A stretch of DNA of 64,000 nt from a phage: the NCBI GenBank assembly GCA_018015315.1, contig GCA_018015315.1_3629.1; one strand, given 5' to 3'. The position numbers and the translations under genes were made by a program. Position 1 is the first letter of the stretch. Each line of letters begins with the position of its first letter. Below are positions 23,016-44,167 of the stretch, in pieces. The notes beneath the pieces were generated by a model, which did not search any database, was not told the DNA's origin, and saw only the letters and a program-made list of their open reading frames with translations.

Positions 23016-26000
23016 TTAGTCGTGAGACTCGTTCCAAGGTCCCTGGAAGCTGGAGTTAGAACGACTAACAACCACAGTAGGACAGGATATTGTAATACCT
23101 GTCACGTTTGACGTTGACCACGGGGTGTAGATTTCAATAATAATGTCTATAGTCTGTTCACCTAGACCTGTTATCCCAACTGCACACATGCCATCGTTGT
23201 CGTTTCCGTACTTCTTGCCAGCAAGGAGTTGATGACCAGCTATCCACGCATTTAGTTGGGAGTTGGCACGAGTACCGTTCAGTTTAAAGAAGAATGTTAC
23301 GTTCTTACCTTGACCTGAAACGTTATCTACGTATCTCCACCTCCAACGGCAAACCCTCTGCTGGGAGTTATATACTGGAGCACAATCTCCGTAAGTCCTG
23401 TGTGCAACAATTGCACCTTCAAACTGGTTAGCACGAATAACAGAAGCTTCTACACGACCACGGAATGTACCTCCGGTTGCATCTATGGTGCCTCTAAAGC
23501 TACCATTATTGGCATAAACATCTCCACGGAAGGTACCACTAGTGGCGTTAACTGCCCCTGTGAAGTTACCAGAACTGGCGTTAATGTTGCCTTTCACCCA
23601 CACATCCATAAATTGGGCATGCCCGTTCTTGTTAATATACCAACCGTATTTATGGTACCCGTTGCCATCGTAGTTGTTTGACGAAATTTCTTGTGCAATC
23701 TTGGCAGAGGAGATCGTGCCATTCTCTATAAAAGCGTCTTTCAAGAACGCTTGGTTGTTCTTGATTGCGAAAGCAAGGGTTGCTGTTCCGTTTCCGGGGT
23801 TGTATACCGCAAAGTTGTTTGCACTAACCATGAAGTATGATTGAACTTGTCCCCCAGACCCCTCCATGCCCAGCTGGATACCTGCAACATACTTATTCCC
23901 TGCGGAGTCTACCTGTATCTTTGTTCCCCATTGAGCATTTACTTTGCCCTCTAAGTCGGTTACAGCCTTAGATGTTGTAGCTACTGCAGCTCTAAGCTCA
24001 GATACATCACCAACATCATCAATTATTTCCTGTTTAGCAACCGCAAGTTCTTGGCGAATAGCTGACGCGGTACCGTTAATAAGATCCACAGTGGCTTTAT
24101 TAGTATCAGAAATTGTAGCATCAAGTGCTGTTTTTGTGGAGGTAAGTTTCCCATCCAAGTCCTTAATTGCCTGCTTGTTGGTAGAGATCTCTCCACGGGC
24201 AGAAGTTATCTGCTCTGACAGTGCAGATGTTTTCTGATTCAATAAATCTGTGGTGGCCTTATTGGTATTAGCGATCAAAGTATTGAGATCAGTTTTTGCA
24301 GTGGTTATCTTACCATCTAACGTGGTATAGTTCTTAGATACCGTCACATTTGTCTGACTGATCTTTTGATCCAGGGTTTCAGAGGTCTTGTTCAAAAGAT
24401 CCACTGTTGCCTTGTTGGTGCTTAGGATACTTGCATCAAGCTCTGTTCTCTGAGTATTGATCTTGCCATCTAGAGTTTTATCTCCAGCAAGGTATCCGCT
24501 CTCAACACCCCCTATTTGCTCTACCAGCTCACCCTTGGCGGCAACCAATTTTTCATCTAAAGCCTCTGTCTTTTTGTTCAAAAGATCAGTAGTTGCTTTA
24601 TTGGTTGTCTCGATCAGGGATGCCAGTCTACCACTTTCAGTGTTCAGGTCGTTAGTAAACTTATTTTGTGCAGCAACAAGTTTCTTATCCAGTGCTGTAA
24701 TGTTACCATTGACATCCTCAAACTTCTGAGTTGTCTCTGTAACTACCGCGCCTATCCTATCCCCGAGTTGCTGGAATGCTTCATCTACCCTACCATCCAT
24801 GTATTTATTGAGCTCTGTGACCCGATTTTCAACCTCTTCGATAGAGGAATCTAAAGTGCTCATCAACTCTTTATAAGTTTCTGTCTTTTTAAATTCAGCA
24901 TCTATCTGAGGCATCAGATCTTCAATGGATGTATAGCAGCGTGCAGCGCATTCTACAAACTGAGAACTACCAAAAGCGTTTGTGGTTCTAATGTACCAAT
25001 AATAAATCTTATCGTTCTGCAGACCTTCAGATGTCCAAGTTGAACCAACACCCATACGCGTGGCTTTTGAAGTAACGGTTGCATCACTGGTATCTGGCAA
25101 TCTTGTCATCCCAGATGTCCAAAAGTCGTACTGGGTGCTTACACTAGCCAAGTCTCTGCTGTGCGGGATCAGGGTAATAGCAAAGTATCCCTGTTTAACC
25201 TCCACAGAAACAGGAGCTTCAGGTGCCTGAATGTTGAACTCACAATATGCTTCCGGAGATACACCACCTTTATAAGATGTTGCAACAACAGTGGCTGTGT
25301 AGAATCCTTTAGTCAGACCCTCAACACGGACAAACTGCTCAACTGTCTGTGCTGTCCAAACAATCTCTCCGTTCTTTCTTACCTGCACAATATTTTGAGC
25401 GTATGTCCCAACGTTGTCCCAAGCCAAAACACCGTGAGTTACTTCTCCAGCTTGGAGAACGGAATATCTGAAGTTTTGCGGTTGAGCTACACCAGATGGA
25501 GATATTGGAATATCTACATCGCCAGAATCCGGAAGTTGCCCTGTGGCATCATTCCACTCTTTAGCATCTTGACGAAGTTTTACCTTGACACCGCCCTTTT
25601 TAGTAAACTCCCATTCAAGAACTCTCATTTCTTGGCCCACTATACCAATACTTGGGAGGTCCATTGTAACGTAACGACCAGGTTTAAATTTGAAACCTCG
25701 CATATTGCAGGTGACTTCAATAATCCTGCCAGCTCTGGCACGTCTTAGGAAGATTGCAGAAACACGCTGAGCTTGATAAGGACTGGTAACAAAGCGATAG
25801 TCTATATCGATTATCTTTCTTTCTCCATCCTTCTCTATCCACTCTGGGACAAACACTGATGGAAAATCTGTTTCAGAATACCCTTTGGTCGGACTAGTGA
25901 ATCTGCCAGTTATTGTGTTGGATCTTTTGTCAAATGAGGCTTCCGGATAGATCTTAACCTCACCACAGACACAGTCCTCACTCAATGTCATTGTTGCCGG

Positions 26001-26855
26001 ACCATAGTATGCACCAACCAGCAAACCATACTTACCAGCAACATAACTAAGGTCTGCACCGCAAGCTTTCAGCATTTCTGCCATAATACTTGCTGGGGCC
26101 TCATCCATGTCAAACTCACCGTTAATGGTGTAACGTCGCTCACTGGTTCCGTCAGCGTTTTTTACTGCCTCGTCGCATATGTTGGCAGCCTCCTTAAAGG
26201 ACTCCCAGTTGATGGTTTCGTCAGGACATTTAAGGTACGTTCTTAAATAGTCTAGGATCACCAAGGCAGCGTTATTGGTATACACCTCTTTACTGATACG
26301 AGGATCATAGCATTTTTTACCAACCTTGACAAGTGTAACGTTTGGCAACCCAAAAGGAAACTTGTTAGGGTCAAACCTGAAGCTGGCACGTAGCCAACTG
26401 ATCCCTCTACCTATCATGTCTGGTGACCATGATGGGCAGTGTGTACCCATGAAAGGATCAGATGTTTTTCTGTCGTTATGTAGCTCCCACGATACCAGAT
26501 CTCCATACGAGGAAATAGGATTACCGTCGATAAGTATATCTTCTATACCTTCCAGAGGGTGATTGGCAAGAACAATAGCACAATGGAGGGTTCTGTCGCT
26601 ATCCTGCTCCAAAAACGCAAGCAATCCGGATGTGCGTGTCTTCCCATACACTACAGAGCAGGGTGCAGCAGAAGATCTGAGAAGCTTTTGTCTATCTTGC
26701 TGACTTCTGTAAGATTTGTTGCCCTCAAAAATCTTATCCAGAGTTCTGGTGGTAACAGTGTTCAGGCTGTCAGCCAGAGCTGCCTTGGATGCGTTCCAGT
26801 CATAACTTGAAGATCTTGCAGAAGCAACGATGTTATCAATCATTGCAATTGGCAT
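23016..26855 (-). CDS. central tail fiber / host-specificity (J-like) protein with internal tandem repeats
   Basis: 1279 aa; about five ~38-aa repeats (TNKATTDLLNKKTEALDEKL and variants) in the middle; C-terminal Gly/Asn/Thr-rich fiber-like region. Confidence 0.6.
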   Translation of the reverse strand: MPIAMIDNIVASARSSSYDWNASKAALADSLNTVTTRTLDKIFEGNKSYRSQQDRQKLLRSSAAPCSVVYGKTRTSGLLAFLEQDSDRTLHCAIVLANHPLEGIEDILIDGNPISSYGDLVSWELHNDRKTSDPFMGTHCPSWSPDMIGRGISWLRASFRFDPNKFPFGLPNVTLVKVGKKCYDPRISKEVYTNNAALVILDYLRTYLKCPDETINWESFKEAANICDEAVKNADGTSERRYTINGEFDMDEAPASIMAEMLKACGADLSYVAGKYGLLVGAYYGPATMTLSEDCVCGEVKIYPEASFDKRSNTITGRFTSPTKGYSETDFPSVFVPEWIEKDGERKIIDIDYRFVTSPYQAQRVSAIFLRRARAGRIIEVTCNMRGFKFKPGRYVTMDLPSIGIVGQEMRVLEWEFTKKGGVKVKLRQDAKEWNDATGQLPDSGDVDIPISPSGVAQPQNFRYSVLQAGEVTHGVLAWDNVGTYAQNIVQVRKNGEIVWTAQTVEQFVRVEGLTKGFYTATVVATSYKGGVSPEAYCEFNIQAPEAPVSVEVKQGYFAITLIPHSRDLASVSTQYDFWTSGMTRLPDTSDATVTSKATRMGVGSTWTSEGLQNDKIYYWYIRTTNAFGSSQFVECAARCYTSIEDLMPQIDAEFKKTETYKELMSTLDSSIEEVENRVTELNKYMDGRVDEAFQQLGDRIGAVVTETTQKFEDVNGNITALDKKLVAAQNKFTNDLNTESGRLASLIETTNKATTDLLNKKTEALDEKLVAAKGELVEQIGGVESGYLAGDKTLDGKINTQRTELDASILSTNKATVDLLNKTSETLDQKISQTNVTVSKNYTTLDGKITTAKTDLNTLIANTNKATTDLLNQKTSALSEQITSARGEISTNKQAIKDLDGKLTSTKTALDATISDTNKATVDLINGTASAIRQELAVAKQEIIDDVGDVSELRAAVATTSKAVTDLEGKVNAQWGTKIQVDSAGNKYVAGIQLGMEGSGGQVQSYFMVSANNFAVYNPGNGTATLAFAIKNNQAFLKDAFIENGTISSAKIAQEISSNNYDGNGYHKYGWYINKNGHAQFMDVWVKGNINASSGNFTGAVNATSGTFRGDVYANNGSFRGTIDATGGTFRGRVEASVIRANQFEGAIVAHRTYGDCAPVYNSQQRVCRWRWRYVDNVSGQGKNVTFFFKLNGTRANSQLNAWIAGHQLLAGKKYGNDNDGMCAVGITGLGEQTIDIIIEIYTPWSTSNVTGITISCPTVVVSRSNSSFQGPWNESHD

Positions 26856-27280
26856 TAATACCTCCAGACATCAACAACGATAGAATCTTTCATGTCGAAC
26901 ATAAAGACCCCTTTATCACCTTTCGCCCAAATCTGGTTGTTCCAGAACACACCAGCGGTGAGCCCGTTCAGACCTTCGAAAATGACAATATCTCCACGCT
27001 GAACCTGTTTAGGAGTATCCAGCCGAGTCATAAAGAGATCAAAAATAGTAGGCAGGTGTGTGGTTTTGAAACGGAGCATGCACCATCTTTTGCTTTCCAA
27101 CTCTGTTTTATACGTTCCTTCGAAGTTAGAAAGAAAATCTGTTCCGTACTGGGCATCAACACACTTAGCTGCAAAGGTGCAACAATCGTGGAATCCCCAT
27201 TCAAAAGGTATGGTGGCCTCTTCGTCAAACACTTTCCACAATCTTTCTTGCCAATCCACTAAACGAGGGTGTGTGCTCAT
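26855..27280 (-). CDS. hypothetical tail protein (possible peptidase-like fold)
   Basis: Start moved to the second ATG (MSTHPRL), which has a GGAGG RBS; HDCC and GDIVIF motifs faintly resemble NlpC/P60-type proteins. Confidence 0.45.
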   Translation of the reverse strand: MSTHPRLVDWQERLWKVFDEEATIPFEWGFHDCCTFAAKCVDAQYGTDFLSNFEGTYKTELESKRWCMLRFKTTHLPTIFDLFMTRLDTPKQVQRGDIVIFEGLNGLTAGVFWNNQIWAKGDKGVFMFDMKDSIVVDVWRY

Positions 27281-27846
27281 TAAACCTCCCAAATGATCGG
27301 GCGGCTCGCCACCTGATCCACATATTTAAAAAATCTGTCATTATCGTTTCTTGAGCTGTGGCTTTCCTCCGTGTACCTATAAGGAAAACCTCTTAACCAA
27401 CTGTTGAAGATGGAAGAGATGGATATGGACAAAGCACTATTCTCACCTGTCTGAATAGCCATATCTGTTATAAGGCCGTCAAACAAGCCATTAGTTGTAA
27501 CAGGCAGACCATTCTCCATAGCGGTAATGTACAACGTGGCACGACAACCAGAATACTCCGTCTTCAGCAGATCACCAACATACTTAGGATCAAACCCGTT
27601 CAATGTTGCTACCACAGATCCGAAGTTGGTGGCATCTTTCTCAGACACAGCAGTTAATGTTGCTGATCCACCTATCCCTATAAAATGTTGCCCCTCAATT
27701 ACTACAACACCAGTGCCTGAGCACACCCTGACAGTTCCTGTCGGTAGCTCCAGCTTTGCAGCAATTAAGATCTCAACACCATCAAGCTCCAGCTTTTCAA
27801 GAAATAAATTATCTAATGGCGCTCTGATCATCTTAGAAATCCTCAA
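27280..27846 (-). CDS. hypothetical tail protein
   Basis: 188-aa ORF; coupled to neighbours. Confidence 0.5.
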   Translation of the reverse strand: MRISKMIRAPLDNLFLEKLELDGVEILIAAKLELPTGTVRVCSGTGVVVIEGQHFIGIGGSATLTAVSEKDATNFGSVVATLNGFDPKYVGDLLKTEYSGCRATLYITAMENGLPVTTNGLFDGLITDMAIQTGENSALSISISSIFNSWLRGFPYRYTEESHSSRNDNDRFFKYVDQVASRPIIWEV

Positions 27847-28423
27847 AGAAGTTGATAACTATATTATCACCTTTTTGCATAGCATCGACTTTTTGCTTAA
27901 TTTTATAAATATCTCTGATATGAAACCTACCCTTTGGGGATTGAGTTATTATCTTCATAGTATCCCCTGCGGCAATAGGTTTCCTAAGTCTTGGAGATAT
28001 GCTTATAACAGCAGCCCCAACACCATCGCTGCGTACTGGAGCTGTTACTACTTTCAACTCATCGTTCACAGATATTTTATCACCAGCTCTGGCTATGTCT
28101 CTGTTTGGCTCCCACCCGACCGTCTTCAAAAAATCGTCGTTACCAGTAGGCCCAAGAGCGATTGGCTCATTAGCTGTTACCGAGTGACCGTAAGTTTTAA
28201 TGAGAAATATGTTCCCATCTTTATATACCTGATCAACAAAGCTCTTAAGCTCTAACAACTGTGACTCGCTGATATTGGAAACCGTCAAAGTGCCTTTCCA
28301 GTTAGGTGTGGCATAGGTTACTTTTTGCGTTTTACCTGTAAACGGACTTTTAAACGTAACAATATCTGCTAGCAGCTCCAATCTAATATCTGGAAGGTAT
28401 CTAGGCCTTTCCCATAAAAACAT
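27833..28423 (-). CDS. hypothetical tail protein
   Basis: 196-aa ORF; GGAGG RBS; preceded by a promoter-like element. Confidence 0.5.
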   Translation of the reverse strand: MFLWERPRYLPDIRLELLADIVTFKSPFTGKTQKVTYATPNWKGTLTVSNISESQLLELKSFVDQVYKDGNIFLIKTYGHSVTANEPIALGPTGNDDFLKTVGWEPNRDIARAGDKISVNDELKVVTAPVRSDGVGAAVISISPRLRKPIAAGDTMKIITQSPKGRFHIRDIYKIKQKVDAMQKGDNIVINFFEDF

Positions 28424-28520: not shown

Positions 28521-28853
28521 TTAAAATACTTCCAAGGTAGACGCTGGAGGGTCGAACATGTTCAATTTCATCGACTCTACAACTTTTCCGCTTTTTGAGA
28601 TAATGTTTTCTGCACCTTCGTCCAGAGTTAAAACATTAACATAAAACAATTCGCTTTTCTCACAAACAGGATAGACAACCATGTTGCCAAACTCATCTTC
28701 TGCCTCATAGGTATCTCCCGTCTCTGTGTAAACAAAGCCAGCAACCTCTACAAGAAGTGTGTTTTGCAACACCTCATTTTCGTAAAAGCCGATTTCATCC
28801 ATGAAACCGTTAAAGTCCTCCCTGTCAGTGAACCCGAGGGTAAAGGTATTCAT
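28521..28853 (-). CDS. small acidic protein (possible tailspike chaperone)
   Basis: 110 aa; ATGA-coupled to the 1479-aa gene upstream. Confidence 0.45.
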   Translation of the reverse strand: MNTFTLGFTDREDFNGFMDEIGFYENEVLQNTLLVEVAGFVYTETGDTYEAEDEFGNMVVYPVCEKSELFYVNVLTLDEGAENIISKSGKVVESMKLNMFDPPASTLEVF

Positions 28854-31800
28854 TATTCAACACTCTCCATCATAAGTTGGGTATCTGTCAGCGCAGAGTT
28901 CCAAACTCTTATGTCCTTAATATGACCAAACAAATGTCTTTCTCCTGTTGCCGTTTGACCACCGATACGGATGAAAGCTCCTCCTGCCAGGAACTCCCAA
29001 GAAGACTGTGTTTCAGTGCTCACCAGTCCGTTAGCAAAAGAGCAAGTTTTACCGTCTTCTTTTATCCTGAACCCCATCTTCAGTTTACGCGCTTTAGCCA
29101 TCTCGTAGACACGTCTGTTTGACCCTCCAATATCGCAGTATGGATACCCATCCTCTGCAATATTTGTTGCAGAACCAAACCCGAGAATAAAAGCTGCGCT
29201 CGTCTGGTGTCCTTCTGTGTCTATAACCCTAGGGGCTGCGTTAGGAGCTTTGCCCCAACCTCTCCAGTTAGCATCCACAGTAGCGGCGATAGTGAACGGT
29301 CTAGGTGCTAAGTTATCCGTCATCGGGAATTTGCAAAGGTCTGCCGCTCTAGTTACAGGTGAAGATCCTGTGGGAATAAACGAGGACTCGCAAGAACCTA
29401 ACTCAAATTGAGGTATTGCAACATCAACCCAATCCCCTACAACATGCTGAGCACCTTCAGGTGGAGAAATCTGGAACTGGCACCCGATATTCTTGTCAGA
29501 GGCCACTGCCTCAAACGTAGCGGCAATCCTTACCCAAGCAGGTCCGGCTGTTTGCCATCTCTCAGCTTTTACTTTAATTCTCCCAGCTGCACCACCTGTT
29601 GTTTTAACTTCAAGTGTTGACAGGTTAACATAAGCGTCACCTTGGAATACTGTGGTGGATCCGTCATACATGTCGAATCTTACACGTAATCTCTGGTTCG
29701 CTTTACCTCCCCTTGCAATAATAGACCCAGTACAGAATTTCTCAGCACCTGTCACATCGGCACCTCTGGTGGCTGGAACTGTAGCAAGGTTTAACGCTGT
29801 TGTTTCCACACCGGATGCAGTGTTTACTGTAAATCTTGCACCTTTTGTGCCGTTGGTGTTTGTTACAGTACCACCAACAGTAATCTGTTGACTGGCTCCC
29901 CACTTGCTAGGATCTTCACTGTTGAGCATCAGGTTTGTCCTTTGCCCTTCAATGAGCAAACCATCTCTTTCGAAACGAGGTTGGTTAGCCTGTGCAACAA
30001 CCATAACACCACGTTTAGTGAAATAGGTCGCTGTAGACGGTCTGGAGAACACCATCTCACCTTCACCTAATACAGGTTTCAGGTTAGAAGTCAAAGGCAA
30101 CCACAAGTCAGGCATCACCGGAGCAGTTGTGCTTTCTGGGAAGCTTGTTCTCTTCCACTGGCTCCAAGCCATTCCGTTTCCAATGTTATTGTAATACCTT
30201 TCCCATGTTCCGCCAAGATACATCTTGTAGATCTGGATACAACCAGTGCCTTCGTTAGCAGAGTTTCTCAGCACGATCAGTGTGCCAGCCATCTGCTGTC
30301 CCGGCGGGTAGTTTCTTTCCGCTGTGGCGTTGGCATTTGCCTCTTGATGGTAAATACCTTCACGATCTGCCTTGTAATCGTTAAGGTTGTTAGTTCCCAA
30401 TCCTTGACCACGGTGCTGAATAACCTTGTTCCACGCTCTGTGGTTTCCCTGCTCTATGGAACGGGTATACAACTGGTCTAAACGACCTGCGATCTGGAAG
30501 GCATAGTTTCCAGAGAATGCCACAGACAACCCACCAACAACCATCGAACCTTCAGGTCCGTTGACATTGCCAGCCATTATTTTGGACGGGTTATTGTTGC
30601 CGAACTGGTTGTTCCAGTCAGCCCCTGTGTGGCATACAAAACCACCAGGTGCAGAGAAAGTGCCGTCTTTGTTGAAGTTATAGAATCTATGAGCAGAACC
30701 TACAACATCACGAACAATAACTTGACCCGCTTCTGGAGTAGATCTAAACTCCGCTTGACCTTTGAGATCAGCACCATTACCACATTTAGAGGTAAACGTA
30801 CCGTTAGTTAGATCCTCTGTTCCATCCGATGCACACTGGAATCCTGCATTAGAGAATAACGCCTTTCTAGGACTTCCGTAGCACAGATAGTCAATACCGT
30901 CTGCCCAGAGCTCAACTTTAGGCATGTTCATTTTGCTCATCACCGCATAGCGTTCAGCTGAGCCTATATAGTGCCACTGTGTGCCACCACCAGTGTAGAA
31001 TCCAGAGGTACCTTTGAAGTCAACAATAGGTCTGGTGTTGGTATTGTTATCTCCAAGAACAGCAAGATTCAAATCTGCCGACTGGAGAGGTGCAACAAAC
31101 TTAACCCCGTCCTGATTGTTTGTTACAGAACCAACCTGGTAGTCTTGTTCTTTGGTAAACACCTCTAAAACATTTCTACTTGCGTATATGCTGACAGGGA
31201 AAGCACGCGCCTCTGCATAGAAAGCAACATATTCTTGTTTACCCCTTGTTGGAGCAACCATCCCAAGAATTGCTTTTTCATTCTGGTAGAAATTTACTAC
31301 TCCGTAGAAAGAGTCCCCTCTATCTGTCCACCCACCAGTTCTATAATGACACTGTAAGGTAGCACAGTTCATGGGGTCACCACCAGATGACGACCTAGTA
31401 ACTATGGTAATATCGGTGCCAGTAGCTGGAGCATAATACGGATCTGTTCTAACTATAATTGGGTAGTATTTCCCATCTTCCATCCCTGCGGTTCTTGGCA
31501 GCGTTAAGAAATCTTTTACGCCTGCAGCTATAGGAACTCTAAACAGATTCTGAGCCTCTGCCAAAGTTGTAGCCCCAGTACCACCTGCGGCTTGCGGTAA
31601 AGGTTCCCACTTGGCCTTCCGGTTGTTATAAACACCCCATTCCAGAGTGCCGTTACCGGATTCATCCATCCCGCCATCCCAGATGACCATCTTGGCGGCT
31701 TTCTTGGATCCCCAGAAGCCTCTTTCTGCTCCTGAACTACGGATCCACTCTCCGAGTCCCCAGTTTGTCAGCTGACCAGTAAGATCCCCAACCTGCATGT

Positions 31801-33292
31801 ATTTAGGGCAGTCTAGCACGCCGTCTTCGCGGAAACCTAAATATCTATGGGTTTCAGATCCTTTTGCACCTTTGTGCAGGTGGATTGTCAACCAAGCCTT
31901 ATTGTCGTTTCTTACCTCAGAATAGATCCTATAACCATGCTCAAGAACACCATCAGTATTATATTTATCTCCATGGAGAATACCTGAGGCAGATTTAACA
32001 TCTCCAGAGTATTGAGCTAAGTAAAGGTGCCCGAAGGCTGGTGAGTTGTTTTTACCAAGGCCGATATGAGATCTGAAGGTATCATCGTTACGAGGTCTGA
32101 CCATCGGCTGCCATGCAGTCCACTGATTTGTGTTGGCCTGATAGGTTCTCAAATACCAAACATCTACGTTAGAGAATGGATAGTATTCCTGACGACAACC
32201 TGCACCGCCGTTAGCATTGTTCTGCCAAACAATCAGGTGACCAGCACCAGAACCTGCTGGGTAACCATTTGCCTCGGTGGCATTGGCAGTCATGGGCTGG
32301 TAGTATACACCATCCTGATTGCCAGTCAAATTGTTAATATTGAAATTTGCCTCAAGGGCTGCACGTTGTTTATAAAAAGTTCCTAAATTAATACGTGCAC
32401 CTGCGGCATCTCTGGCACCTGTACCACCTTGCTCTATAGCAAGAGGTTGCCATGAAGATGTCTGTTGGTTCCACATGCCCCAACGACCTGTTGCATCAAG
32501 CTGCAAGTACCCGGCTGTGTTTACATCATCACCAGCACGAATAACGGTTCTTGTTGGGCTGTTTGCCTCTAGGCGTTTAAATTCATCACGAAGTGCTATT
32601 CTTTTTGTTGTTGCTACACCGTTGGTTACTGCAATGGTGTACATAGCTCCGGAGGTAGCGCCACGGAAAATACCATCAACAGTTGTAGTATCACGACGAG
32701 ATACCACACCGTTCAGGAATTTTTCACCAGCTGCTACAGAAGGGTAGTTAGTAGTTCTTCCCTCTTCAATAACTGCAGGGCCAACAAAATTGACAAGGTG
32801 AATAACATCGCCTACAGTGTGCACGGTACCAAAATCTACCCGCTGTGCAAGTGCTTTAGCATCGTTGGCGGTCTTAACTGTAACATCCATTACATCCTGG
32901 ACAGACTGGCCTTCAGCTGTCATAATCATGGATGCGCCAATAGTTGATTCCAGCTCCTCTCTTAATGATGGATCTGTATATACCATCCATGCAGCATCAG
33001 TAATCCCACCATCGGAGTACGGTGAAGATAGTGCAGGAACGGTGTGCGGAAATTCGCCTTTCCAACGCAGGTAGAGGTCTTCCTCTTCGAAGTAGGCAAA
33101 ATCCATTGGGCCGTTTAACTTACCACCTTCCTTAAAGGAGATTACATGAGAAACAGTCCCATCCACATGGACAACATCGCCAATTTTTACACGACGGGTC
33201 AGGTCTGGTTGTTGAACAACCAGGTAATCATCCTCTGTCACTGCGGTAGTGGCAGGAAGAGATTCAATTCTGACAACTTTAATATCAGCCAT
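28853..33292 (-). CDS. large tailspike / tail fiber protein (1479 aa)
   Basis: N-terminal ~100 aa homologous to the 222-aa protein at 35927..36595 (DDYLVVQQPDLTRRVKIGDVV / FKEGGKLNGPMDFAY); long Gly/Thr/Asn-rich body. Confidence 0.65.
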   Translation of the reverse strand: MADIKVVRIESLPATTAVTEDDYLVVQQPDLTRRVKIGDVVHVDGTVSHVISFKEGGKLNGPMDFAYFEEEDLYLRWKGEFPHTVPALSSPYSDGGITDAAWMVYTDPSLREELESTIGASMIMTAEGQSVQDVMDVTVKTANDAKALAQRVDFGTVHTVGDVIHLVNFVGPAVIEEGRTTNYPSVAAGEKFLNGVVSRRDTTTVDGIFRGATSGAMYTIAVTNGVATTKRIALRDEFKRLEANSPTRTVIRAGDDVNTAGYLQLDATGRWGMWNQQTSSWQPLAIEQGGTGARDAAGARINLGTFYKQRAALEANFNINNLTGNQDGVYYQPMTANATEANGYPAGSGAGHLIVWQNNANGGAGCRQEYYPFSNVDVWYLRTYQANTNQWTAWQPMVRPRNDDTFRSHIGLGKNNSPAFGHLYLAQYSGDVKSASGILHGDKYNTDGVLEHGYRIYSEVRNDNKAWLTIHLHKGAKGSETHRYLGFREDGVLDCPKYMQVGDLTGQLTNWGLGEWIRSSGAERGFWGSKKAAKMVIWDGGMDESGNGTLEWGVYNNRKAKWEPLPQAAGGTGATTLAEAQNLFRVPIAAGVKDFLTLPRTAGMEDGKYYPIIVRTDPYYAPATGTDITIVTRSSSGGDPMNCATLQCHYRTGGWTDRGDSFYGVVNFYQNEKAILGMVAPTRGKQEYVAFYAEARAFPVSIYASRNVLEVFTKEQDYQVGSVTNNQDGVKFVAPLQSADLNLAVLGDNNTNTRPIVDFKGTSGFYTGGGTQWHYIGSAERYAVMSKMNMPKVELWADGIDYLCYGSPRKALFSNAGFQCASDGTEDLTNGTFTSKCGNGADLKGQAEFRSTPEAGQVIVRDVVGSAHRFYNFNKDGTFSAPGGFVCHTGADWNNQFGNNNPSKIMAGNVNGPEGSMVVGGLSVAFSGNYAFQIAGRLDQLYTRSIEQGNHRAWNKVIQHRGQGLGTNNLNDYKADREGIYHQEANANATAERNYPPGQQMAGTLIVLRNSANEGTGCIQIYKMYLGGTWERYYNNIGNGMAWSQWKRTSFPESTTAPVMPDLWLPLTSNLKPVLGEGEMVFSRPSTATYFTKRGVMVVAQANQPRFERDGLLIEGQRTNLMLNSEDPSKWGASQQITVGGTVTNTNGTKGARFTVNTASGVETTALNLATVPATRGADVTGAEKFCTGSIIARGGKANQRLRVRFDMYDGSTTVFQGDAYVNLSTLEVKTTGGAAGRIKVKAERWQTAGPAWVRIAATFEAVASDKNIGCQFQISPPEGAQHVVGDWVDVAIPQFELGSCESSFIPTGSSPVTRAADLCKFPMTDNLAPRPFTIAATVDANWRGWGKAPNAAPRVIDTEGHQTSAAFILGFGSATNIAEDGYPYCDIGGSNRRVYEMAKARKLKMGFRIKEDGKTCSFANGLVSTETQSSWEFLAGGAFIRIGGQTATGERHLFGHIKDIRVWNSALTDTQLMMESVE

Positions 33293-37333: not shown

Positions 37334-38011
37334 TTAGTGCGGTCCACTTGTCTCGCCATCAGGGCAAGAGTGGGTATGACCTTTATATTCTGCATAGAAT
37401 GAATCCAAATCCACGCCAGCAGCAGTTATAATTCTACCAGATGGGTCTATTGTAGCACCATTCATTCTGATATTTCCATCCACAGCAGCTCGCAAATTGG
37501 CAGCACCGTTAGTGAAAGAGAACTCTCCGCTGCTGTCGCACCGTAATGTCCCACCAGGTGTTTGAAGCTCAAAATCACCAGAAGGTGTCAGTTTAAAATA
37601 AACCCTATCATTCCATAACTCTACGTTATCAGGATCGATCTGTAAAGCGTTTGAGTCTGAATGAACAGAGGTGATTGCCCACCCAGGAAACAGGCCGTGA
37701 GTTTGTTGATCATCGTTATTGTTTTCATTTCTCTCTGAAAACTGCAATCCTACAACATCTCCAGCCTTAATAGGAAGTGTTAACCTTGCCTTTCCGCTGT
37801 TTGCAGACATCACCTGAATTGGAACGTCATAGATAAGAGGGTATCTCTCCACATCCCCGTCATCAAACGTGGTTTCAGCAATTGGCTGCACGGCTGCAGA
37901 AGGGATACTGTAGTCTACACTGACAACTCTGGCCCTGATACTGGTGTGGTAGTCCCTCATTATTTTTTCTATGAAGGATCTTACAGCAGCATCTTTCCTA
38001 TTTATTGCCAT
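37334..38011 (-). CDS. putative baseplate central spike protein
   Basis: 225 aa; position in the baseplate block; C-terminal HTHSCPDGETSGPH suggests a metal-binding apex. Confidence 0.45.
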   Translation of the reverse strand: MAINRKDAAVRSFIEKIMRDYHTSIRARVVSVDYSIPSAAVQPIAETTFDDGDVERYPLIYDVPIQVMSANSGKARLTLPIKAGDVVGLQFSERNENNNDDQQTHGLFPGWAITSVHSDSNALQIDPDNVELWNDRVYFKLTPSGDFELQTPGGTLRCDSSGEFSFTNGAANLRAAVDGNIRMNGATIDPSGRIITAAGVDLDSFYAEYKGHTHSCPDGETSGPH

Positions 38012-39015
38012 TATACCTCCTCAGTTTTGTCAACAACTCCACCCACTGTTTCCCCAAGGCCAAGCTCTGTAGTGTAATCACCACCTTCTATGGTGCCCTT
38101 ATGATGCACCGTGATCACCTTATAGAAGCCTGTATATTGCTTGCTTTTAAGATAAATAGTGGACTCTGGGAGGATAGCTCCGTTAAGGCATGTGGTTACA
38201 GTAAGGCCAACATCCTCTCTCGGGTTTTTCTTTTTCTTTTTAGATGTCGAACCACCTTTGGCAGCAGCTTTAGCTTTTCGTTTTTTAGCAGGTTCTGGGT
38301 TTTTAGGGGTAGGAGACCCGTGCATCCCAGACTCTGCACTTATTTCAAACACAGAGTCTTTGAACCTTTTTCCAACCTTGGTCCAATACAAAGCCCCATC
38401 CTGAACGCTAAATGTGGAGTTGGTCAGCCTTGCAAACCTGCGGAGGTTCTCTGCAGTGTTTCCAGAGAAAGCCATAGAGTATTGCAAAGTCTGGTTTCCA
38501 AAACCAACAACCCTACCTTTTGGCAAGTTCATATCCTTCAGCAGGTCATTAAGCACAGAGTTCAGAGGTGTGCCTTTCTGATAAGATCTTGTGCTTTGGC
38601 ACTTAATGATGTTCTCAGTGCCATCCCCGAAGATGAACTTAGTTTTTCTGGTCGGACCTTCCCATCTGTCTTCAACAAACTCCACAGTTCCGGAGAATAT
38701 TAACTGGTTCTCATCATCATAGCCAGCCTCAAACATAACTGCAAGGGCATCAGCCTGATGCATATCCAGATAGTTAACTGTATCGTCAGACAGGTTGTAA
38801 ACTGTCACATAACCTTTGTTTGGCTCTTTGGTATTGTCCTTTTGTATGTCAAACTCTATATTGGCAGCACCAGTGTCTGAGCTAACTTCATAAACTCCGG
38901 AATCACTCTCCCCTTTCTTTTCAACAGATTTTGGGATATTGGTTTTTGATTTACCACCATGCTCTACCGGACGACCAAACAATAATCGCCATGTTCTACG
39001 TCTGTACTCTGCCAT
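38011..39015 (-). CDS. putative baseplate hub protein
   Basis: 334 aa with a Lys-rich linker; ATGA-coupled. Confidence 0.45.
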   Translation of the reverse strand: MAEYRRRTWRLLFGRPVEHGGKSKTNIPKSVEKKGESDSGVYEVSSDTGAANIEFDIQKDNTKEPNKGYVTVYNLSDDTVNYLDMHQADALAVMFEAGYDDENQLIFSGTVEFVEDRWEGPTRKTKFIFGDGTENIIKCQSTRSYQKGTPLNSVLNDLLKDMNLPKGRVVGFGNQTLQYSMAFSGNTAENLRRFARLTNSTFSVQDGALYWTKVGKRFKDSVFEISAESGMHGSPTPKNPEPAKKRKAKAAAKGGSTSKKKKKNPREDVGLTVTTCLNGAILPESTIYLKSKQYTGFYKVITVHHKGTIEGGDYTTELGLGETVGGVVDKTEEV

Positions 39016-39395
39016 TATTCTAACCCTTGCTGTTCCTTGTAAAGATCAACCGGGGTGCCGTATACAAGTTGTAGCTCAGATCTCGCCCCAAGGTTATATC
39101 TTCCAACTCTACCCCAATATTGATCGTCTTTAAACGACAGCACCATCAGTCTTCCTTTCGGTAAATCATCTCTGTAATGCAGTCCGTCTAAAATATCTTG
39201 GCAAGCTGTTACTTTTCTGGTTACTAAAGGGCTATCACCTACTGGACCAAGAGATAACCACCAGGACTCATCCCTCTCATTCCATTGCATACGCATTTCA
39301 TACGTTTCATTGTCTAAAACAACACGCATGGTTTGGTCAGGAAAGCCGTCAATGTCCCACACAAAGGTGATTATGCACCAATCTTTAAGCTCCAT
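39015..39395 (-). CDS. hypothetical tail protein
   Basis: 126-aa ORF. Confidence 0.45.
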   Translation of the reverse strand: MELKDWCIITFVWDIDGFPDQTMRVVLDNETYEMRMQWNERDESWWLSLGPVGDSPLVTRKVTACQDILDGLHYRDDLPKGRLMVLSFKDDQYWGRVGRYNLGARSELQLVYGTPVDLYKEQQGLE

Positions 39396-39407
39396 TATAC
39401 GCTCCCC

Positions 39408-40319
39408 TTATTTCCCGTTAACTTTGTTGTAGTTTCCCTGCTCAGATGGGACTATGGTAGAAGGTCTTCCATATTCCTGATAATACCAATCCGCAGCCGA
39501 TTGGGTAACACCGTTTTCATCTGTCCACATCATAGATTTGTATGGCTGCCACTCCTCTGCAGCGTTTGTGGATGCAGTGTCTGCGAATGCTCCTGTGTCC
39601 CTCTTGTTACCTACGTTACTACCATTCTTACAGTCGTTGACAGCGCCTTTTTGTTGGGTCTTGCCTACTTTCTTAGGATTGCTGTATACAGTTGCATTAA
39701 CAACCTTATTCAAGTAGAATGTGCGGAACTCTGTAAGTTCTACATCAAACACCATTGCAGCGCCTTCACCAACAGACTTGTTGGCAGAAAGACTGGTTAT
39801 GATGTAGTTCTCAAGAAGTCTCTCCTCGGTAACCAAAGAAACCAACTGTCGCTTATTGATAATCTCAGTCAAAGCCTCCAATGCAGCGCCTGGTCGCATA
39901 GATGCTGCAGGGTTTTTAGAGTCAGTATTCCTATCAATGTAGTTTTGCTCATAGATTATGTGTGGGGATGTATTTACCCTACCAGTAAAAGAAAATACAC
40001 CATCTTTAATTACAGCGTGGTCTGACAGGGTAGATTTATCTTCCACCGCAAACCCAGTCTTATCAACAGAATGTTTGAAAGAGTAATTCTCAACCTGATC
40101 GAAGATAATGGCAAGATCGTTAGTAAAGTTTTTACCCTTCATCTCCGTATTGCGACCGCCATAGTTAAGACCGCTGACAAACATAGTGTACTTTACATCG
40201 CTTTCAGTTTGCTGCTCTGCCTTTTCAGCCTTTGGAGATTTAACCTCTTGAGGCTTGTACAGGTCTTTTTCATCAACTATATTGCTTGGCATAACCTCTC
40301 CAGGACACTCCGATACCAT
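39408..40319 (-). CDS. hypothetical tail protein (distal tail)
   Basis: 303-aa ORF immediately downstream of the tape measure gene. Confidence 0.5.
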   Translation of the reverse strand: MVSECPGEVMPSNIVDEKDLYKPQEVKSPKAEKAEQQTESDVKYTMFVSGLNYGGRNTEMKGKNFTNDLAIIFDQVENYSFKHSVDKTGFAVEDKSTLSDHAVIKDGVFSFTGRVNTSPHIIYEQNYIDRNTDSKNPAASMRPGAALEALTEIINKRQLVSLVTEERLLENYIITSLSANKSVGEGAAMVFDVELTEFRTFYLNKVVNATVYSNPKKVGKTQQKGAVNDCKNGSNVGNKRDTGAFADTASTNAAEEWQPYKSMMWTDENGVTQSAADWYYQEYGRPSTIVPSEQGNYNKVNGK

Positions 40320-40361
40320 CTAAATATTGTATCATAAAATAGCCGTTTTTACAACACCGAT

Positions 40362-40386
40362 AAAATAAAGGGGGCCGGAGCCCCCC
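40362..40386 (-). terminator. intra-operon hairpin terminator/attenuator after the tape measure gene
   Basis: GGGGGC-CGGA-GCCCCC perfect stem followed by a U/A-rich run. Confidence 0.45.
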
Positions 40387-40397
40387 TGCACAGTTTA

Positions 40398-42734
40398 TTA
40401 CCAAAGGTCGGTAGACATGAAGTTGATATCTTTATTGTTCTCCCACTCAAGTTTTGCATCAAATATTTTGTTAAACTCACCCTCATCTATTGAAATCGTG
40501 ATTTTCCCATCACTGATCTCTAAAGGTAGCATTTCCATAGTTCTTAATTGAGAAGCAAAACCAGGGCCACCCGGCAACGGAAGAGTCCCGCCAGGCAAGG
40601 TGTCCAAAGGATTAACAAACCCGTTACCTCCCGATATGATATCTTTGCGAATCATATCGCTGATAGTATCCAGCTGCTGATTTCTTTCACTTAGTGGGTT
40701 GTAACGGTCATTAAATAATTCCCCGGCGCTTAGTATTGTACCGATAATACCCAGCTTACCGAGCAGACCAACTTTGCCACCAGGTGTCTTGAGGCCACCT
40801 CCACCTTTTCCTGCCGGAGCTCCACCACCAGACCCTTCTGTAGTAGCGGCACCCGCTGCTCCAGCTGCACCCCTTAGAGAGTTAAGGAATTTAAAGGTTT
40901 TTACAAGCATGGATGCCATGACAAAACCTTTTGTTAGGGCGTTGACTACCAGCATGATGGCAGCAGCAAACCCTGCCCATTTAGCATAGCTAAAGGTGTC
41001 ATGAAGCTCTTCAGAATATTCCTTCGTCTTAGCTGTTATGAATCCCCATTTAATCCCCCATTCAAGGAAAAACATGCGGATCTTGACTATAGTGTTGTTT
41101 AGTTCACCAACTACCCAGTTAAGGCCTCTCACAAACCCGCTAACAAAATCACCAGAGGCATCCCACACAAATTGCAGAGTCTCACCAGTGCGGATTAGTG
41201 TATAATAGAACTCTGTTAGTTCGTCAGACCAACGGGTGAACAGTTTCTGACGAGTCAGTTCGATGAAGGTTTTCAGTCTGTTTTCTGCCAGCACGTTAGA
41301 CTTCTGCATTCTTTCATAACCAGCTGCAGATGCCTCGTTCATGTACTTAGCCACATACTTCATGATCTTGGCTGTTTTAACCTCACCTTTCTTCATCATG
41401 TCCATGAACTGATCCATGGAGAGTTCAGAAAGACCAAAAGCCTCTTTGGTGGCCTTGATAAAAGGTTCGTATGCACCAGGCAATGCTTCAGCAAGTTGTT
41501 GCTTCAGTTCTTCGGACATTACTTGTCCCTTGCCAAGCATCTGTTGGATTGCCATAATACCGCGCTGGTATTTTACCTCATCGGCACCATAAGCAGCAGC
41601 ATACTGGGAGTATGCAGAAAACAGCTCATGCACTTCCTGATTTGTCATCTGGTTTTTGGCGTTTACCGACATCTGGGCGTAACCTTGAAGACCAGATTTG
41701 AGATCAAAACCAAGACGCATAGCCTCTTGCTGGACAAACGCAACCTCACTGTTAGCTTTGTTTGGATCTCCAGTAACAGCTGTAAGAGCAGCACTTGCCC
41801 CCTCCATCATGTGACCGGATCTGTTAACCGCAGCAAATCCAGAAAAAGCCGTATACGCAGCTGTTGCATTAATAACAGATCTACGTAGGTCTCTCATGGC
41901 ATCGCCTAGTGTAAGCGTTTGGCTGGTGGCGCTTTTAAACCCAGACTGCAGCGCTGACAGGTGGGCGTTAAAGGTTGACTTCTTCATCTCCCCGCGAGCA
42001 AACCTGGACTCTAACTCTGAGTATCCTGGCAAGCTTCCACGGAATCCGGCCCCATACTTGGCAGAAAGTCTTATCGCTGAGTTGTAGAGGTGGGTTCTCC
42101 TTGCCTCACGATCCGACATAAGCCTATTATCCATACCAGCTTTACTGTCTCTTCTTAGCTGTCTATGATAACGATTCATAGCGGCTGTCTGAGCTTTCAC
42201 AAGGTTAGGGTCGGAAGCCACACCACCCATATTAGGGTTACCGGGGATATATTTGAAAGATTTGGCATTAGCCAAAACTCTTGCCTTAGGTGCCTTATAA
42301 CCACCGTAAGACACTGGTGCAGATTTGGCAGCCTTTTTGGCCTCTTTAGCTTGCTGCTGGTAGAACTTACGCATCCTAGCCATTTCTGGATTTTTAGCGG
42401 TAAGATTACCTACAGCTTGTTTACGTCTCGCATTCTCCCTACGTTCTATTGCAGCCCTTACTGCAGCCTCTTTCTTGGCCTGTGCTACGCTCTCTCTGTG
42501 CAGTTTAGCATTTGCCTGAGATTGCTGTCTGGCAACCCTCTGCATTGTCTGCTGGGTTTTAACAGCTACCGCCTGCCATCTACTCATGGGGTTGGATGAG
42601 TTAAAATCCTCGCCCAGTTTCCTGAACTCCCTCCCAATACTGCGAATTTTCTCTACAGCTTTTTTGTAGGAGGAGTTCTCTATCTCAAAGCCAATCTTGT
42701 TGACTGTTGTGGCAACTATTTTGTTTGTAGCCAT
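40398..42734 (-). CDS. tail tape measure protein
   Basis: 778 aa; Ala/Lys/Gln-rich helical N-terminal half, hydrophobic segment, Gly-rich stretch; directly downstream of the chaperone genes. Confidence 0.8.
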   Translation of the reverse strand: MATNKIVATTVNKIGFEIENSSYKKAVEKIRSIGREFRKLGEDFNSSNPMSRWQAVAVKTQQTMQRVARQQSQANAKLHRESVAQAKKEAAVRAAIERRENARRKQAVGNLTAKNPEMARMRKFYQQQAKEAKKAAKSAPVSYGGYKAPKARVLANAKSFKYIPGNPNMGGVASDPNLVKAQTAAMNRYHRQLRRDSKAGMDNRLMSDREARRTHLYNSAIRLSAKYGAGFRGSLPGYSELESRFARGEMKKSTFNAHLSALQSGFKSATSQTLTLGDAMRDLRRSVINATAAYTAFSGFAAVNRSGHMMEGASAALTAVTGDPNKANSEVAFVQQEAMRLGFDLKSGLQGYAQMSVNAKNQMTNQEVHELFSAYSQYAAAYGADEVKYQRGIMAIQQMLGKGQVMSEELKQQLAEALPGAYEPFIKATKEAFGLSELSMDQFMDMMKKGEVKTAKIMKYVAKYMNEASAAGYERMQKSNVLAENRLKTFIELTRQKLFTRWSDELTEFYYTLIRTGETLQFVWDASGDFVSGFVRGLNWVVGELNNTIVKIRMFFLEWGIKWGFITAKTKEYSEELHDTFSYAKWAGFAAAIMLVVNALTKGFVMASMLVKTFKFLNSLRGAAGAAGAATTEGSGGGAPAGKGGGGLKTPGGKVGLLGKLGIIGTILSAGELFNDRYNPLSERNQQLDTISDMIRKDIISGGNGFVNPLDTLPGGTLPLPGGPGFASQLRTMEMLPLEISDGKITISIDEGEFNKIFDAKLEWENNKDINFMSTDLW

Positions 42735-42747
42735 GGTTTCCTCATAA

Positions 42748-42786
42748 TAAAAAGGGCCAGATCCCAGAAAAGGAATCCGGCCCTTA
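42748..42786 (-). terminator. hairpin (terminator or RNA-stability element) just upstream of the tape measure RBS
   Basis: 9-bp stem with one G-U pair, then UUUUUAUUAU, then GAGGAA RBS and ATG. Confidence 0.4.
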
Positions 42787-42788
42787 GA

Positions 42789-43037
42789 TTATCCTCTCCT
42801 GCGCTTAGCTTTCGCAGCAGCTGCGGCAGCCTTCTGCTCCCGCTCCATTTCCCTGTTTTGGACGGTATCTAGGAATTCTTCAATATCAAGATACTCACAG
42901 AGCTTCAGGAAATACGCCATATCTGCAAGATTTAGCGATTCAAAATTTTCCCCTTTGAAATTCTTGAGCACCCTGCACCAAAGAAAGTCGAACCAGTTGA
43001 GTGAACTGTTCTTGGCTGCCCACTCACTGGCCCTCAC
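42789..43037 (-). CDS. putative tail assembly chaperone (second ORF)
   Basis: 82 aa, GTG start; sits between the first chaperone ORF and the tape measure gene, as lambda T-like ORFs do. Confidence 0.4.
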   Translation of the reverse strand: MRASEWAAKNSSLNWFDFLWCRVLKNFKGENFESLNLADMAYFLKLCEYLDIEEFLDTVQNREMEREQKAAAAAAKAKRRRG

Positions 43038-43048
43038 AACAACCTTGC

Positions 43049-43522
43049 TTATTCCTGCTCTTCCGGAGTCTGATCCAGGTTGTTCACCTGCTGAATCATA
43101 CCCATCTGCTGTAACATCTCCAGAAGGCTTCCTAAACCGTCTTGTGTGAAAAAACAGCCGTAGTTAACCTCCAGAACCTTACCTGCCAGCTTAATCATCT
43201 CCAGCAGATGCCCCGCAAACACAACATCCGGGTTAAGCTTATCCACACCATCTACGGTAATATCTTCGAACAAGATTTTAAATAGCTCTTCAATAGAGTT
43301 ATCATCAAGTTCTTGGAACAGGTAAGCCAGAGCAGTAGGAAGGACCTCTGCCATGTTCTGACCGCCTGAGATAATAGATCCACCGATAGCACCTAGCGGG
43401 ACAGCCACAATCTTACCGATTTTAGGCATGTTTTTCATTGCTTTCATCGGTCCCCAATGGGTGATCACAAAGTTGTGCCCTGCTAAATCAATCTCTGTTG
43501 TAGGTCTAAAGTTTATAGCCAT
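43049..43522 (-). CDS. putative tail assembly chaperone
   Basis: 157-aa acidic protein between the tube and tape measure genes. Confidence 0.5.
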   Translation of the reverse strand: MAINFRPTTEIDLAGHNFVITHWGPMKAMKNMPKIGKIVAVPLGAIGGSIISGGQNMAEVLPTALAYLFQELDDNSIEELFKILFEDITVDGVDKLNPDVVFAGHLLEMIKLAGKVLEVNYGCFFTQDGLGSLLEMLQQMGMIQQVNNLDQTPEEQE

Positions 43523-43635
43523 TTTATAGCATCCTTATTAGTCATGTTGTGCACCATATTTGTGTATTTTACCATGATTAGGGTGCATTGTCAATTTAAC
43601 CTTTCAAGCAATTCAAGAACGTGTGTCAAAACCAT

Positions 43636-43668
43636 AAAAGCAAAAAGCCCCACCCGAAGGTGAGGCTT
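43636..43668 (-). terminator. rho-independent terminator after the tail tube gene
   Basis: Stem with UUCG tetraloop followed by UUUUUGCUUUU. Confidence 0.65.
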
Positions 43669-43683
43669 ATGCTAAAGTTGCCC

Positions 43684-44157: not shown

Positions 44158-44167
44158 CTAGTCTTCC

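Follow-up and report, generated by a model that had tools for sequence, protein, structure and literature searches.

A copy-number-variable tandem-repeat array in the predicted helical shaft of a J-type fibre protein from an rV5-like phage

The question raised by the locus described here is what a long internal repeat array does in the central-fibre gene of a contractile-tailed phage, and whether the number of its repeats sets the length of the fibre. The window, i.e., the whole 64,000-nucleotide (nt) stretch analysed (contig GCA_018015315.1_3629.1 of the NCBI GenBank assembly GCA_018015315.1), belongs to an rV5-like myovirus of the genus Vequintavirus. The gene in question occupies positions 23016..26855 on the (-) strand, where the open reading frame (ORF) of 1279 amino acids (aa) reported by an earlier sequence-only reading was confirmed. 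Using the ORF listing together with PHROG and Pfam matches it was identified as the ortholog of rV5 gp37, likewise a 1279-aa protein, which was seen in virions via mass spectrometry (PMC3606486). At the nt level the gene is 99.1% identical to that of phage MiataMamis and 93.5% identical to that of rV5. The family phrog_31 (“central tail fiber J”) matched the ORF protein across aa 143-1137 (E=3e-163), and by these profile matches the product is a lambda-J-type central fibre or tip attachment protein carried by a phage with a contractile tail. We consider it probable (roughly 0.75) that the repeats form a parallel coiled-coil shaft of variable copy number, the length of which follows repeat gain and loss.

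The repeats can be recognized from the exact pentapeptide TNKAT, which occurs four times, at aa 751, 813, 864, and 918 (spacing 62, 51, and 54 aa), and from the motif LD[GK]K, which starts the units at aa 722, 795, 846, and 900; the array ends with LEGK at aa 968, which gives unit lengths of 73, 51, 54, and 68 aa. Within each unit a 46-aa core block was delimited: aa 733-778 in copy 1 (unit aa 722-794, 73 aa; core at 24522..24659, on the (-) strand as are all features of this gene), aa 795-840 in copy 2 (unit aa 795-845, 51 aa; 24336..24473), aa 846-891 in copy 3 (unit aa 846-899, 54 aa; 24183..24320), and aa 900-945 in copy 4 (unit aa 900-967, 68 aa; 24021..24158). The four core blocks are 35-48% identical to each other in pairwise comparisons and have a consensus of roughly L-D-G-K-x7-L-x3-I-x2-TNKATxDLLNxKTxALxExL. 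A profile built from any three copies retrieved the fourth with an independent E-value (iE) of 5e-15 to 1e-18 (leave-one-out iE 8.6e-15, 8.8e-17, 1.3e-18, and 4.7e-15 for copies 1 to 4, respectively). The same leave-one-out searches detected a vestigial fifth copy of 16 aa (aa 953-968, ELRAAVATTSKAVTDL; 23952..23999; iE 6e-4 to 5e-3), which sits at the conserved junction between shaft and beta-prism and is kept in the alignments with the J proteins of F2 pyocin, T1, and lambda, and a still weaker half-unit was found at aa 715-732 (iE 0.02). The sequence-only reading had thus been right that the fibre is internally repetitive, while its count of at least five copies has to be lowered to four full copies plus the 16-aa vestige (iE about 1e-3), and the period of about 38 aa that it proposed has to be abandoned, as no self-comparison lag near 38 scored and the motif spacing is 62, 51, and 54 aa.

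Self-alignment, the check that had been proposed for the repeats, revealed significant periodicity: ungapped self-comparison windows of 20 aa scored 61-77 at lags 51, 54, 62, 105, and 113, compared to a maximum of 43 in 100 whole-protein shuffles and of 51 in 200 shuffles of the helical region. Coiled coils are known to yield spurious self-similarity, and composition-preserving shuffles break heptads and therefore underestimate chance. A 13-repeat profile constructed from three alleles gave no positive score in two unrelated helical linkers of J proteins (516 and 777 aa, ~1,290 aa) and none in aa 645-714 of the protein's own shaft, which shows that the likeness among the repeats is not a generic coiled-coil bias. 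The notion that there is no true repeat, only compositional or heptad bias of a coiled coil, was rejected with a residual probability that is practically nil on account of the iE values of 1e-15 to 1e-18, the four TNKAT occurrences, the silent linkers, and the coincidence of indels between alleles with unit boundaries. At the DNA level the copies share 45-54% nt identity, with a longest shared word of 14 nt (in-frame comparison), and Tandem Repeats Finder reported for 22-28 kb of the window three trivial 9-14-nt arrays only, none of which is within the shaft. The low DNA identity and the negative Tandem Repeats Finder search indicate that the duplications are old; at such identity the copies are not alike enough to misalign often, and the array is therefore not a fast slippage-type variable-number tandem repeat.

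The array is held by a predicted alpha-helical shaft of 321 aa (aa 645-965; 23961..24923), which was delimited by hydrophobic periodicity, by the DSSP assignment of an AlphaFold2 (AF2) model, and by position, for it is placed between the second fibronectin type III (FNIII)-like domain (PF24489) and the beta-prism domain (PF09327), as is the helical segment termed AHS in J-type proteins. Hydrophobicity in aa 645-965 has a period of 3.63 residues per turn with a power of 7.08 (maximum of 2.4 in 500 shuffles; z about 35) and nil power at 3.5 residues, and along all 321 residues the local hydrophobic phase, taken in 36-aa windows, varies by no more than about 78 degrees. Such phase coherence fits one continuous amphipathic helix and is not expected from hairpins. 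At this period 51 aa, the length of one unit, make up 14.0 turns (four hendecads and a heptad). The TN and the final T of TNKAT point towards the core, which accounts for why they are conserved and implies that some layers of the core are polar. In the AF2 monomer model of aa 640-1279, from which the secondary structure alone was used, helix was assigned to aa 644-655, 659-790, 794-948, and 952-968, followed by strands, with three breaks of three residues each.

Homology on both sides of the shaft suggests how the chains pack. Lambda gpJ (PDB 8iyk) aligned at aa 497-683 and aa 957-1116 and nowhere in between, a gap that leaves about 270 additional helical residues compared to lambda. The lambda AHS (residues 809-861) is a three-helix bundle between FNIII-2 and the beta-prism (PMC11101478), and since this is the segment between the same two domains, the repeat array would fill an AHS about six times longer. 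Homology to the F2 pyocin shaft (25vf, E=1e-17), in its part directly before the conserved junction, was found for aa 872-972, and the alignment with this J-like protein crosses the distal repeats and the junction itself (...ATTSKAVTDLEGKVNAQWG...); the F2 pyocin shaft is a solved three-stranded coiled coil (PMC13455828). By analogy with these two proteins (PMC11101478, PMC13455828) parallel trimeric packing of the shaft is likely. Using 0.148 nm per residue and the 325 aa from PQIDAEF to AQWG, the shaft would be about 48 nm long if fully extended.

The second check that had been proposed, a comparison of repeat number among related genomes, for which counts were taken from IMG/VR loci and GenBank phage records (a protein search with aa 600-1100 gave 18 proteins, most of them truncated), was positive as well and revealed Vequintavirus alleles with 2, 3, 4, or 6 copies. 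A tblastn search with the shaft alone retrieved 115 phage records in three identity bands. With counts per allele extrapolated from these bands and five sequenced representatives, four copies (1279 aa; rV5, FV3, and the present window) are found in approximately 58 records, three copies (1199 aa; APECc02, LL12, and FFH2 type) in approximately 43, six copies (1381 aa; NHEP1, YN3, and the IMG/VR contig L004) in approximately 13, and two copies (1174 aa; O157 typing phage 14, KP869112) in approximately one. Identity to the window is 99.1-99.5% for the first 648 aa and 96-97% for the last 306 aa in all alleles, compared to shaft identities of 57% for the 3-copy allele, 82% for the 6-copy allele, and 97-98% for the 2- and 4-copy alleles. 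Nucleotide identity to APECc02 in 150-nt windows is mostly 95-100% in the flanks (the lowest flank windows, 0.85-0.91, lie near the cassette boundaries and the 3' end), falls to 29-59% across aa 651-950, and then recovers. The shaft therefore behaves as an exchangeable cassette. Both the 3- and the 6-copy shafts retain the phase-coherent periodicity of 3.63 residues, and their length differences from the 4-copy shaft (-80 aa, 22.0 turns; +102 aa, 28.1 turns) keep the phase. Among the records with rV5-like fibre genes were 18 “Campylobacter phage” entries (among MG065646-MG065690; host given as Campylobacter jejuni) that are 93-97% identical to E. coli rV5-like phages over the fibre gene, and their host label looks doubtful.

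One length change was resolved to the nucleotide. The gene of O157 typing phage 14 equals that of rV5 minus exactly 315 nt (105 aa, the two units of 51 and 54 aa), and its sequence is an exact chimera that reads as rV5 copy 2 up to the joint and as copy 4 beyond it, with the switch inside a 13-nt identity (AAGCCACTGTGGA) in the TN(Q/K)ATVD codons. This allele is a microhomology-mediated contraction observed at single-base resolution. The 6-copy allele has two extra copy-1-type units of 43-45 aa inserted at the TNKAT motif and a 14-aa insertion upstream. The suggestion of the sequence-only reading that the fibre evolves by repeat expansion or contraction is thereby supported, and length changes in this family are rare microhomology events together with exchange of the whole cassette. 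Across 36 IMG/VR loci and GenBank the linker between the Ig_J_second and Phage_Tail_Tip domains measured about 0, 50, 79-90, 225, 305, 407, 500, or 761 aa. Linkers of 79-90 aa belong to Nonagvirus and other siphovirus-size loci, those of 225, 305, and 407 aa are the TNKAT-repeat alleles, and those of 500 and 761 aa occur in two IMG/VR contigs (L031, aa 653-1168; L024, aa 655-1431) with their own unrelated helical repeats, e.g., VTEQGKELSAAVQSV. Since T1 gp33 also has a repeat of its own in this segment, length variation by internal duplication recurs at this position in J-type proteins.

The reading that we prefer can be put as follows. The repeats are tandem duplications, old and by now diverged, of a core block of ~46 residues in units of 51-73 aa, and together they would build the shaft. 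Judging from the homologous lambda gpJ and F-type pyocin fibres, this shaft is most likely a single parallel coiled coil of three chains with next to no supercoiling (mixed hendecad and heptad). It would hold the beta-prism, a short beta-helix, and the C-terminal binding domain at a distance from the Ig/FNIII domains and the presumed hub part. One unit would add about 7.5-8 nm. Predicted shaft lengths are about 33 nm for 2 copies, 36 nm for 3, 48 nm for 4, and 63 nm for 6. Length would change by two routes: short identities within the conserved TNKAT codons serve for deletions or duplications, or recombination in the near-identical flanks replaces the shaft cassette as a whole. The length-tunable coiled-coil shaft of the sequence-only reading is supported in this form by the helical region, its position, and the copy-number alleles; the trimeric parallel state and the physical length are likely by homology and estimate, and a selective value of length is conceivable.

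Several points weigh against this reading. The AF2 model was built from a shallow alignment of 15 sequences and is of low confidence (mean predicted local distance difference test (pLDDT) score 52, predicted template modelling (pTM) score 0.24). Seven of the 16 Gly of the shaft are found in the Gly-rich segment KGELVEQIGGVESGYLAGDKTLDG between copies 1 and 2 (aa 775-797; 24465..24533), where the helix is broken in the model at aa 791-793 and the phase drifts by about 50 degrees, and the shaft may consequently be hinged and not one rigid rod. This segment, which is not present in the 3-copy allele, may be a hinge or, by analogy with the docking site at G955 in the F2 pyocin, a kink in the shaft. 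When the shaft alone was compared with PDB sequences, the best match was the tail needle gp26 (4lin), which with E=9e-4 and a high compositional bias is no evidence of homology, followed by apolipoprotein and haemagglutinin HA2 matches with E>0.1. The 2-copy allele is known from the single “partial genome” record KP869112, and the numbers of records per allele are extrapolations. Length is linked to no phenotype, and selection acting on it, be it for reach through surface glycans or for matching other fibres, is plausible at best. Finally, the “central” placement of gp37 is an assumption, as the myovirus virion already has its own hub.

Alternative functions of the same helices have to be weighed against the spacer role. 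The array could be a metamorphic element like that of the F7 pyocin central fibre and, on a small scale, of lambda gpJ, a coiled coil that refolds into a beta-prism after receptor binding and thereby shortens the fibre, releases energy, or opens the tip, with copy number setting the size of the prism. It does sit where the fold-switching coiled coil lies, immediately before the beta-prism “seed” domain (PMC12874032), query aa ~943-972 align with lambda residues 830-861, of which 841-861, the very segment that aligns with the fifth-copy vestige (aa 953-968), turn from helix to strand upon LamB binding (PMC11101478), and the Thr-rich composition (45 of 321 residues) with polar T/N core layers argues for marginal helix stability. 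However, the signature SxSxxMxxLxS, scanned approximately with a regular expression transcribed from its verbal description (PMC12874032), shows no enrichment in the shaft, with 3 matches when shuffles predict 3.25 (P=0.64). All but one of the matches fall within aa 921-974, next to the junction: two are at aa 921-939, and a scan of subregions added one at aa 964. Copies 2 and 3 have no match, and copy 1 has a single chance-level match at aa 763. The phage moreover has a contractile sheath and a hub of its own and hence no obvious need for a fibre-borne energy source. At most these matches suggest a lambda-like local switch near the junction, and we regard wholesale refolding of the array as unlikely.

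Whether each unit instead serves to bind a side fibre or an accessory protein, so that copy number sets the number of appendages, can be asked because three side-fibre trimers are attached to the F2 pyocin shaft where a Gly, G955, makes a kink (PMC13455828), because units 2-4 each start with a conserved LDGK (a Gly and an acidic residue), and because rV5-like phages encode many fibre proteins with unassigned attachment points (PMC8594841). Yet the best-conserved residues (TN..T, L, I) lie on the core-facing stripe, as predicted for a structural repeat, the two extra units of the 6-copy allele do not have the LDGK Gly, and copy number is not linked to the allele of the neighbouring fibre, given that the window (4 copies) and APECc02 (3 copies) share a 1479-aa fibre and rV5 (4 copies) has one of 1272 aa. 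A binding partner for the shaft was not identified, and such a docking rail is quite doubtful. An antiparallel bundle, compact like spectrin or apolipoprotein, in which copy number would alter bulk and not length, could account for the short helix breaks in the AF2 model at aa 656-658, 791-793, and 949-951, the Gly between units, and the precomputed apolipoprotein-type Pfam matches on homologous fragments as well as weak apolipoprotein E matches at aa 644-746 (E about 0.3). The hydrophobic phase is, however, unbroken across all unit boundaries, which hairpin turns would not be expected to keep, the array of four to five units shows no more than three breaks, the solved homologous shafts are parallel three-stranded rods (PMC13455828, PMC11101478), and the T1 homolog is predicted to be extended (PMC11945409). 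We consider such folding back improbable, and of the arrangements discussed the extended parallel shaft is retained.

The remaining domains of the protein follow the J-type order. Nothing in Pfam or among PDB sequences matched aa 1-490; for the rV5 protein, HHpred likeness to a Mu-type hub (3CDD) has been noted (PMC3606486). Directly N-terminal of the shaft are two immunoglobulin (Ig)/FNIII-like domains, aa 493-545 and aa 547-652 (24900..25379). The second is assigned by PF24489 (Ig_J_second) with E=1e-30, over the curated cutoff, and the first is weakly supported because its PF24421 (Ig_J) match (E=9e-5) scores 22.9 bits and the curated cutoff is 29 bits; the region of both domains aligned to lambda gpJ residues 666-849 (PDB 8iyk). 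Downstream of the shaft the Phage_Tail_Tip domain (aa 957-1097; 23565..23987; PF09327, E=1e-38) is the equivalent of the beta-prism “central straight fibre”, and this region aligns with lambda gpJ 844-991, F2 pyocin 1082-1184, and T1 gp33, and also matches gp24 J-like chains in the PDB sequence search. Self-comparison revealed a second, unrelated repeat of four 11-aa units at aa 1092-1135 (23451..23582; NASSGNFTGAV, NATSGTFRGDV, YANNGSFRGTI, DATGGTFRGRV), with scores of 40-63 at lags 11, 22, and 33 (61-63 at lags 11 and 22) compared to a shuffle maximum of 43. This repeat probably folds into a short beta-helix behind the prism domain. In phage ESCO3, a Nonagvirus siphovirus related to phage 9g, the homologous protein is shorter here by exactly 22 aa (two units). 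The C-terminal domain (aa 1136-1279; 23019..23450) has the position of the lambda gpJ receptor-binding domain (PMC11101478), is 96-97% identical across the four shaft alleles, and is presumed to be the distal receptor-binding end.

Upstream of the fibre gene lie siphovirus-type tail-tip genes identified with Pfam and PHROG (26855..28423, (-) strand), i.e., a DUF6950 gene (26855-27292), a phrog_2048 tail protein gene (27280-27846), and a distal tail protein (Dit) gene (27833-28423). The order Dit, phrog_2048, DUF6950, J is the same as in phage ESCO3; the proteins of the cassette are 45-50% identical to those of the Nonagvirus (phage 9g-related siphovirus) module, the siphovirus J protein reaching 45-50% identity across aa 48-1270, and the annotation of rV5 gp38-gp40 notes similarity to siphovirus PY54. 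The DUF6950 gene and the fibre gene overlap at the stop codon of the former and the start codon of the latter (26852-26858; base 26855 is in both ORFs), and together with the overlapping or abutting arrangement of the three upstream genes this suggests translational coupling across the cassette. The cassette lies between fibre genes and wedge genes, beyond the myoviral hub set, and the window encodes its own tail sheath and tape measure as well as a myoviral set of tube initiator, plug, hub, and sheath initiator, the latter set being collinear with phi92 gp134-gp139 (tape measure, hub, and sheath at 38011-45544). Although the Dit, phrog_2048, and DUF6950 genes do precede the J gene, it does not follow the tape measure of a non-contractile tail; the tape measure is 13 kb away, next comes the myoviral hub set, and a sheath gene is present. 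The protein is J-like by sequence in a virion that is contractile. The rV5 relative phi92 does not have the cassette, and its cryo-electron microscopy structures consequently cannot place gp37. The assignment of fibre genes to fibres is unclear in the rV5-like group (PMC8594841); thin fibres of ~70 nm were seen occasionally in rV5 (PMC3606486), a length compatible with FNIII domains, shaft, and tip, which is not diagnostic. It is a long shot that in rV5-like myoviruses, which carry a whole siphovirus-type tip cassette (Dit, L-like, DUF6950, J-like) besides the full contractile hub, J has turned into an accessory fibre, with repeat gain and loss retuning a triggering or adsorption device and not just a spacer.

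At 28521-33292 on the (-) strand a 1479-aa tail-fibre gene is followed by a 110-aa ORF, as in APECc02, while rV5 has the 1272-aa gp41 and no annotated small ORF. On these comparisons the fibre locus is a mosaic of an rV5-type 4-copy shaft and an APECc02-type neighbouring fibre.

We found none of the following described in the searchable literature: the repeat array of gp37, its alleles of differing copy number, the deletion junction, and the place of gp37 in the virion. Long helical shafts in J-type fibres are already known from lambda, T1, and F-type pyocins, and if the shaft is only a spacer, the locus is a tidy but ordinary case of repeat-based variation in fibre length and a modest twist on a known fibre design. 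The helical shaft of J-type fibres has lately gained attention and is now actively studied, and the value of the locus lies in its natural allelic series of 2, 3, 4, and 6 units (predicted about 33 to 63 nm) in fibres that are otherwise 96-99.5% identical, which comes near to a ready-made experiment on shaft length in adsorption, host range, and triggering. The locus also shows by which modes a shaft changes, namely microhomology deletion at a conserved motif and cassette exchange, and it draws attention to an unexplained trait of a very common group of E. coli phages, the siphovirus-type tip module inside a myovirus fibre locus.

Among known systems, the tail needle gp26 of P22-like podoviruses (4lin) has repeat units that weakly resemble those of the query in sequence (LDGKITTAKTDL... 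and LDGRVTTAENNI...). Needles of this kind are parallel trimeric coiled coils, and both proteins are internally repeated and helical, but gp26 differs in protein family, virion place, and role (plug and needle). T1 gp33 (9l9p; PMC11945409) is J-like, aligns with query aa 854-1113, and has a flexible C-terminal part of 350 aa predicted as an extended alpha/beta fibre of ~37 nm. In its shaft (9l9p chain S, residues ~920-1000) it has a near-exact tandem repeat of about 33 aa, REVIATETEALSREIDQLKAQIGDDIQASLTDI, for which we found no copy-number comparison reported in the literature examined. Unlike the query repeat, to which it is unrelated in sequence, that of T1 is shorter and much younger, and T1 is a siphovirus.

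The central fibres of F-type pyocins (F2 PyoF10, 25vf, PMC13455828; F7 CFP, PMC12874032) are J-like and share with the query an exceptionally long three-stranded coiled-coil shaft before the beta-prism, and F2 pyocin residues 986-1184 align with query aa 872-1078 (E about 1e-17). Their shaft is shorter, with a fold-switching coiled coil of 163 aa, and is not described as built from tandem repeats. In F2 pyocin this long coiled coil serves as the anchor of side fibres (PMC13455828), and in F7 pyocin it is able to switch wholesale into a beta-prism with a signature that is not enriched in the query (PMC12874032). Lambda gpJ (8iyk, 8xcj; PMC11101478) has two FNIII/Ig domains, a helical shaft, a beta-prism, and a distal binding domain in the same order, preceded by a hub part to which the N-terminal region of the query would correspond, with sequence homology on both sides of the shaft and a conserved shaft-to-prism junction. 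The lambda shaft, which partly refolds on receptor binding (PMC11101478), comprises about 53 aa (809-861) without internal repeats in a siphovirus, whereas that of the query comprises 321 aa with four repeats and is encoded by a contractile-tailed phage with its own hub.

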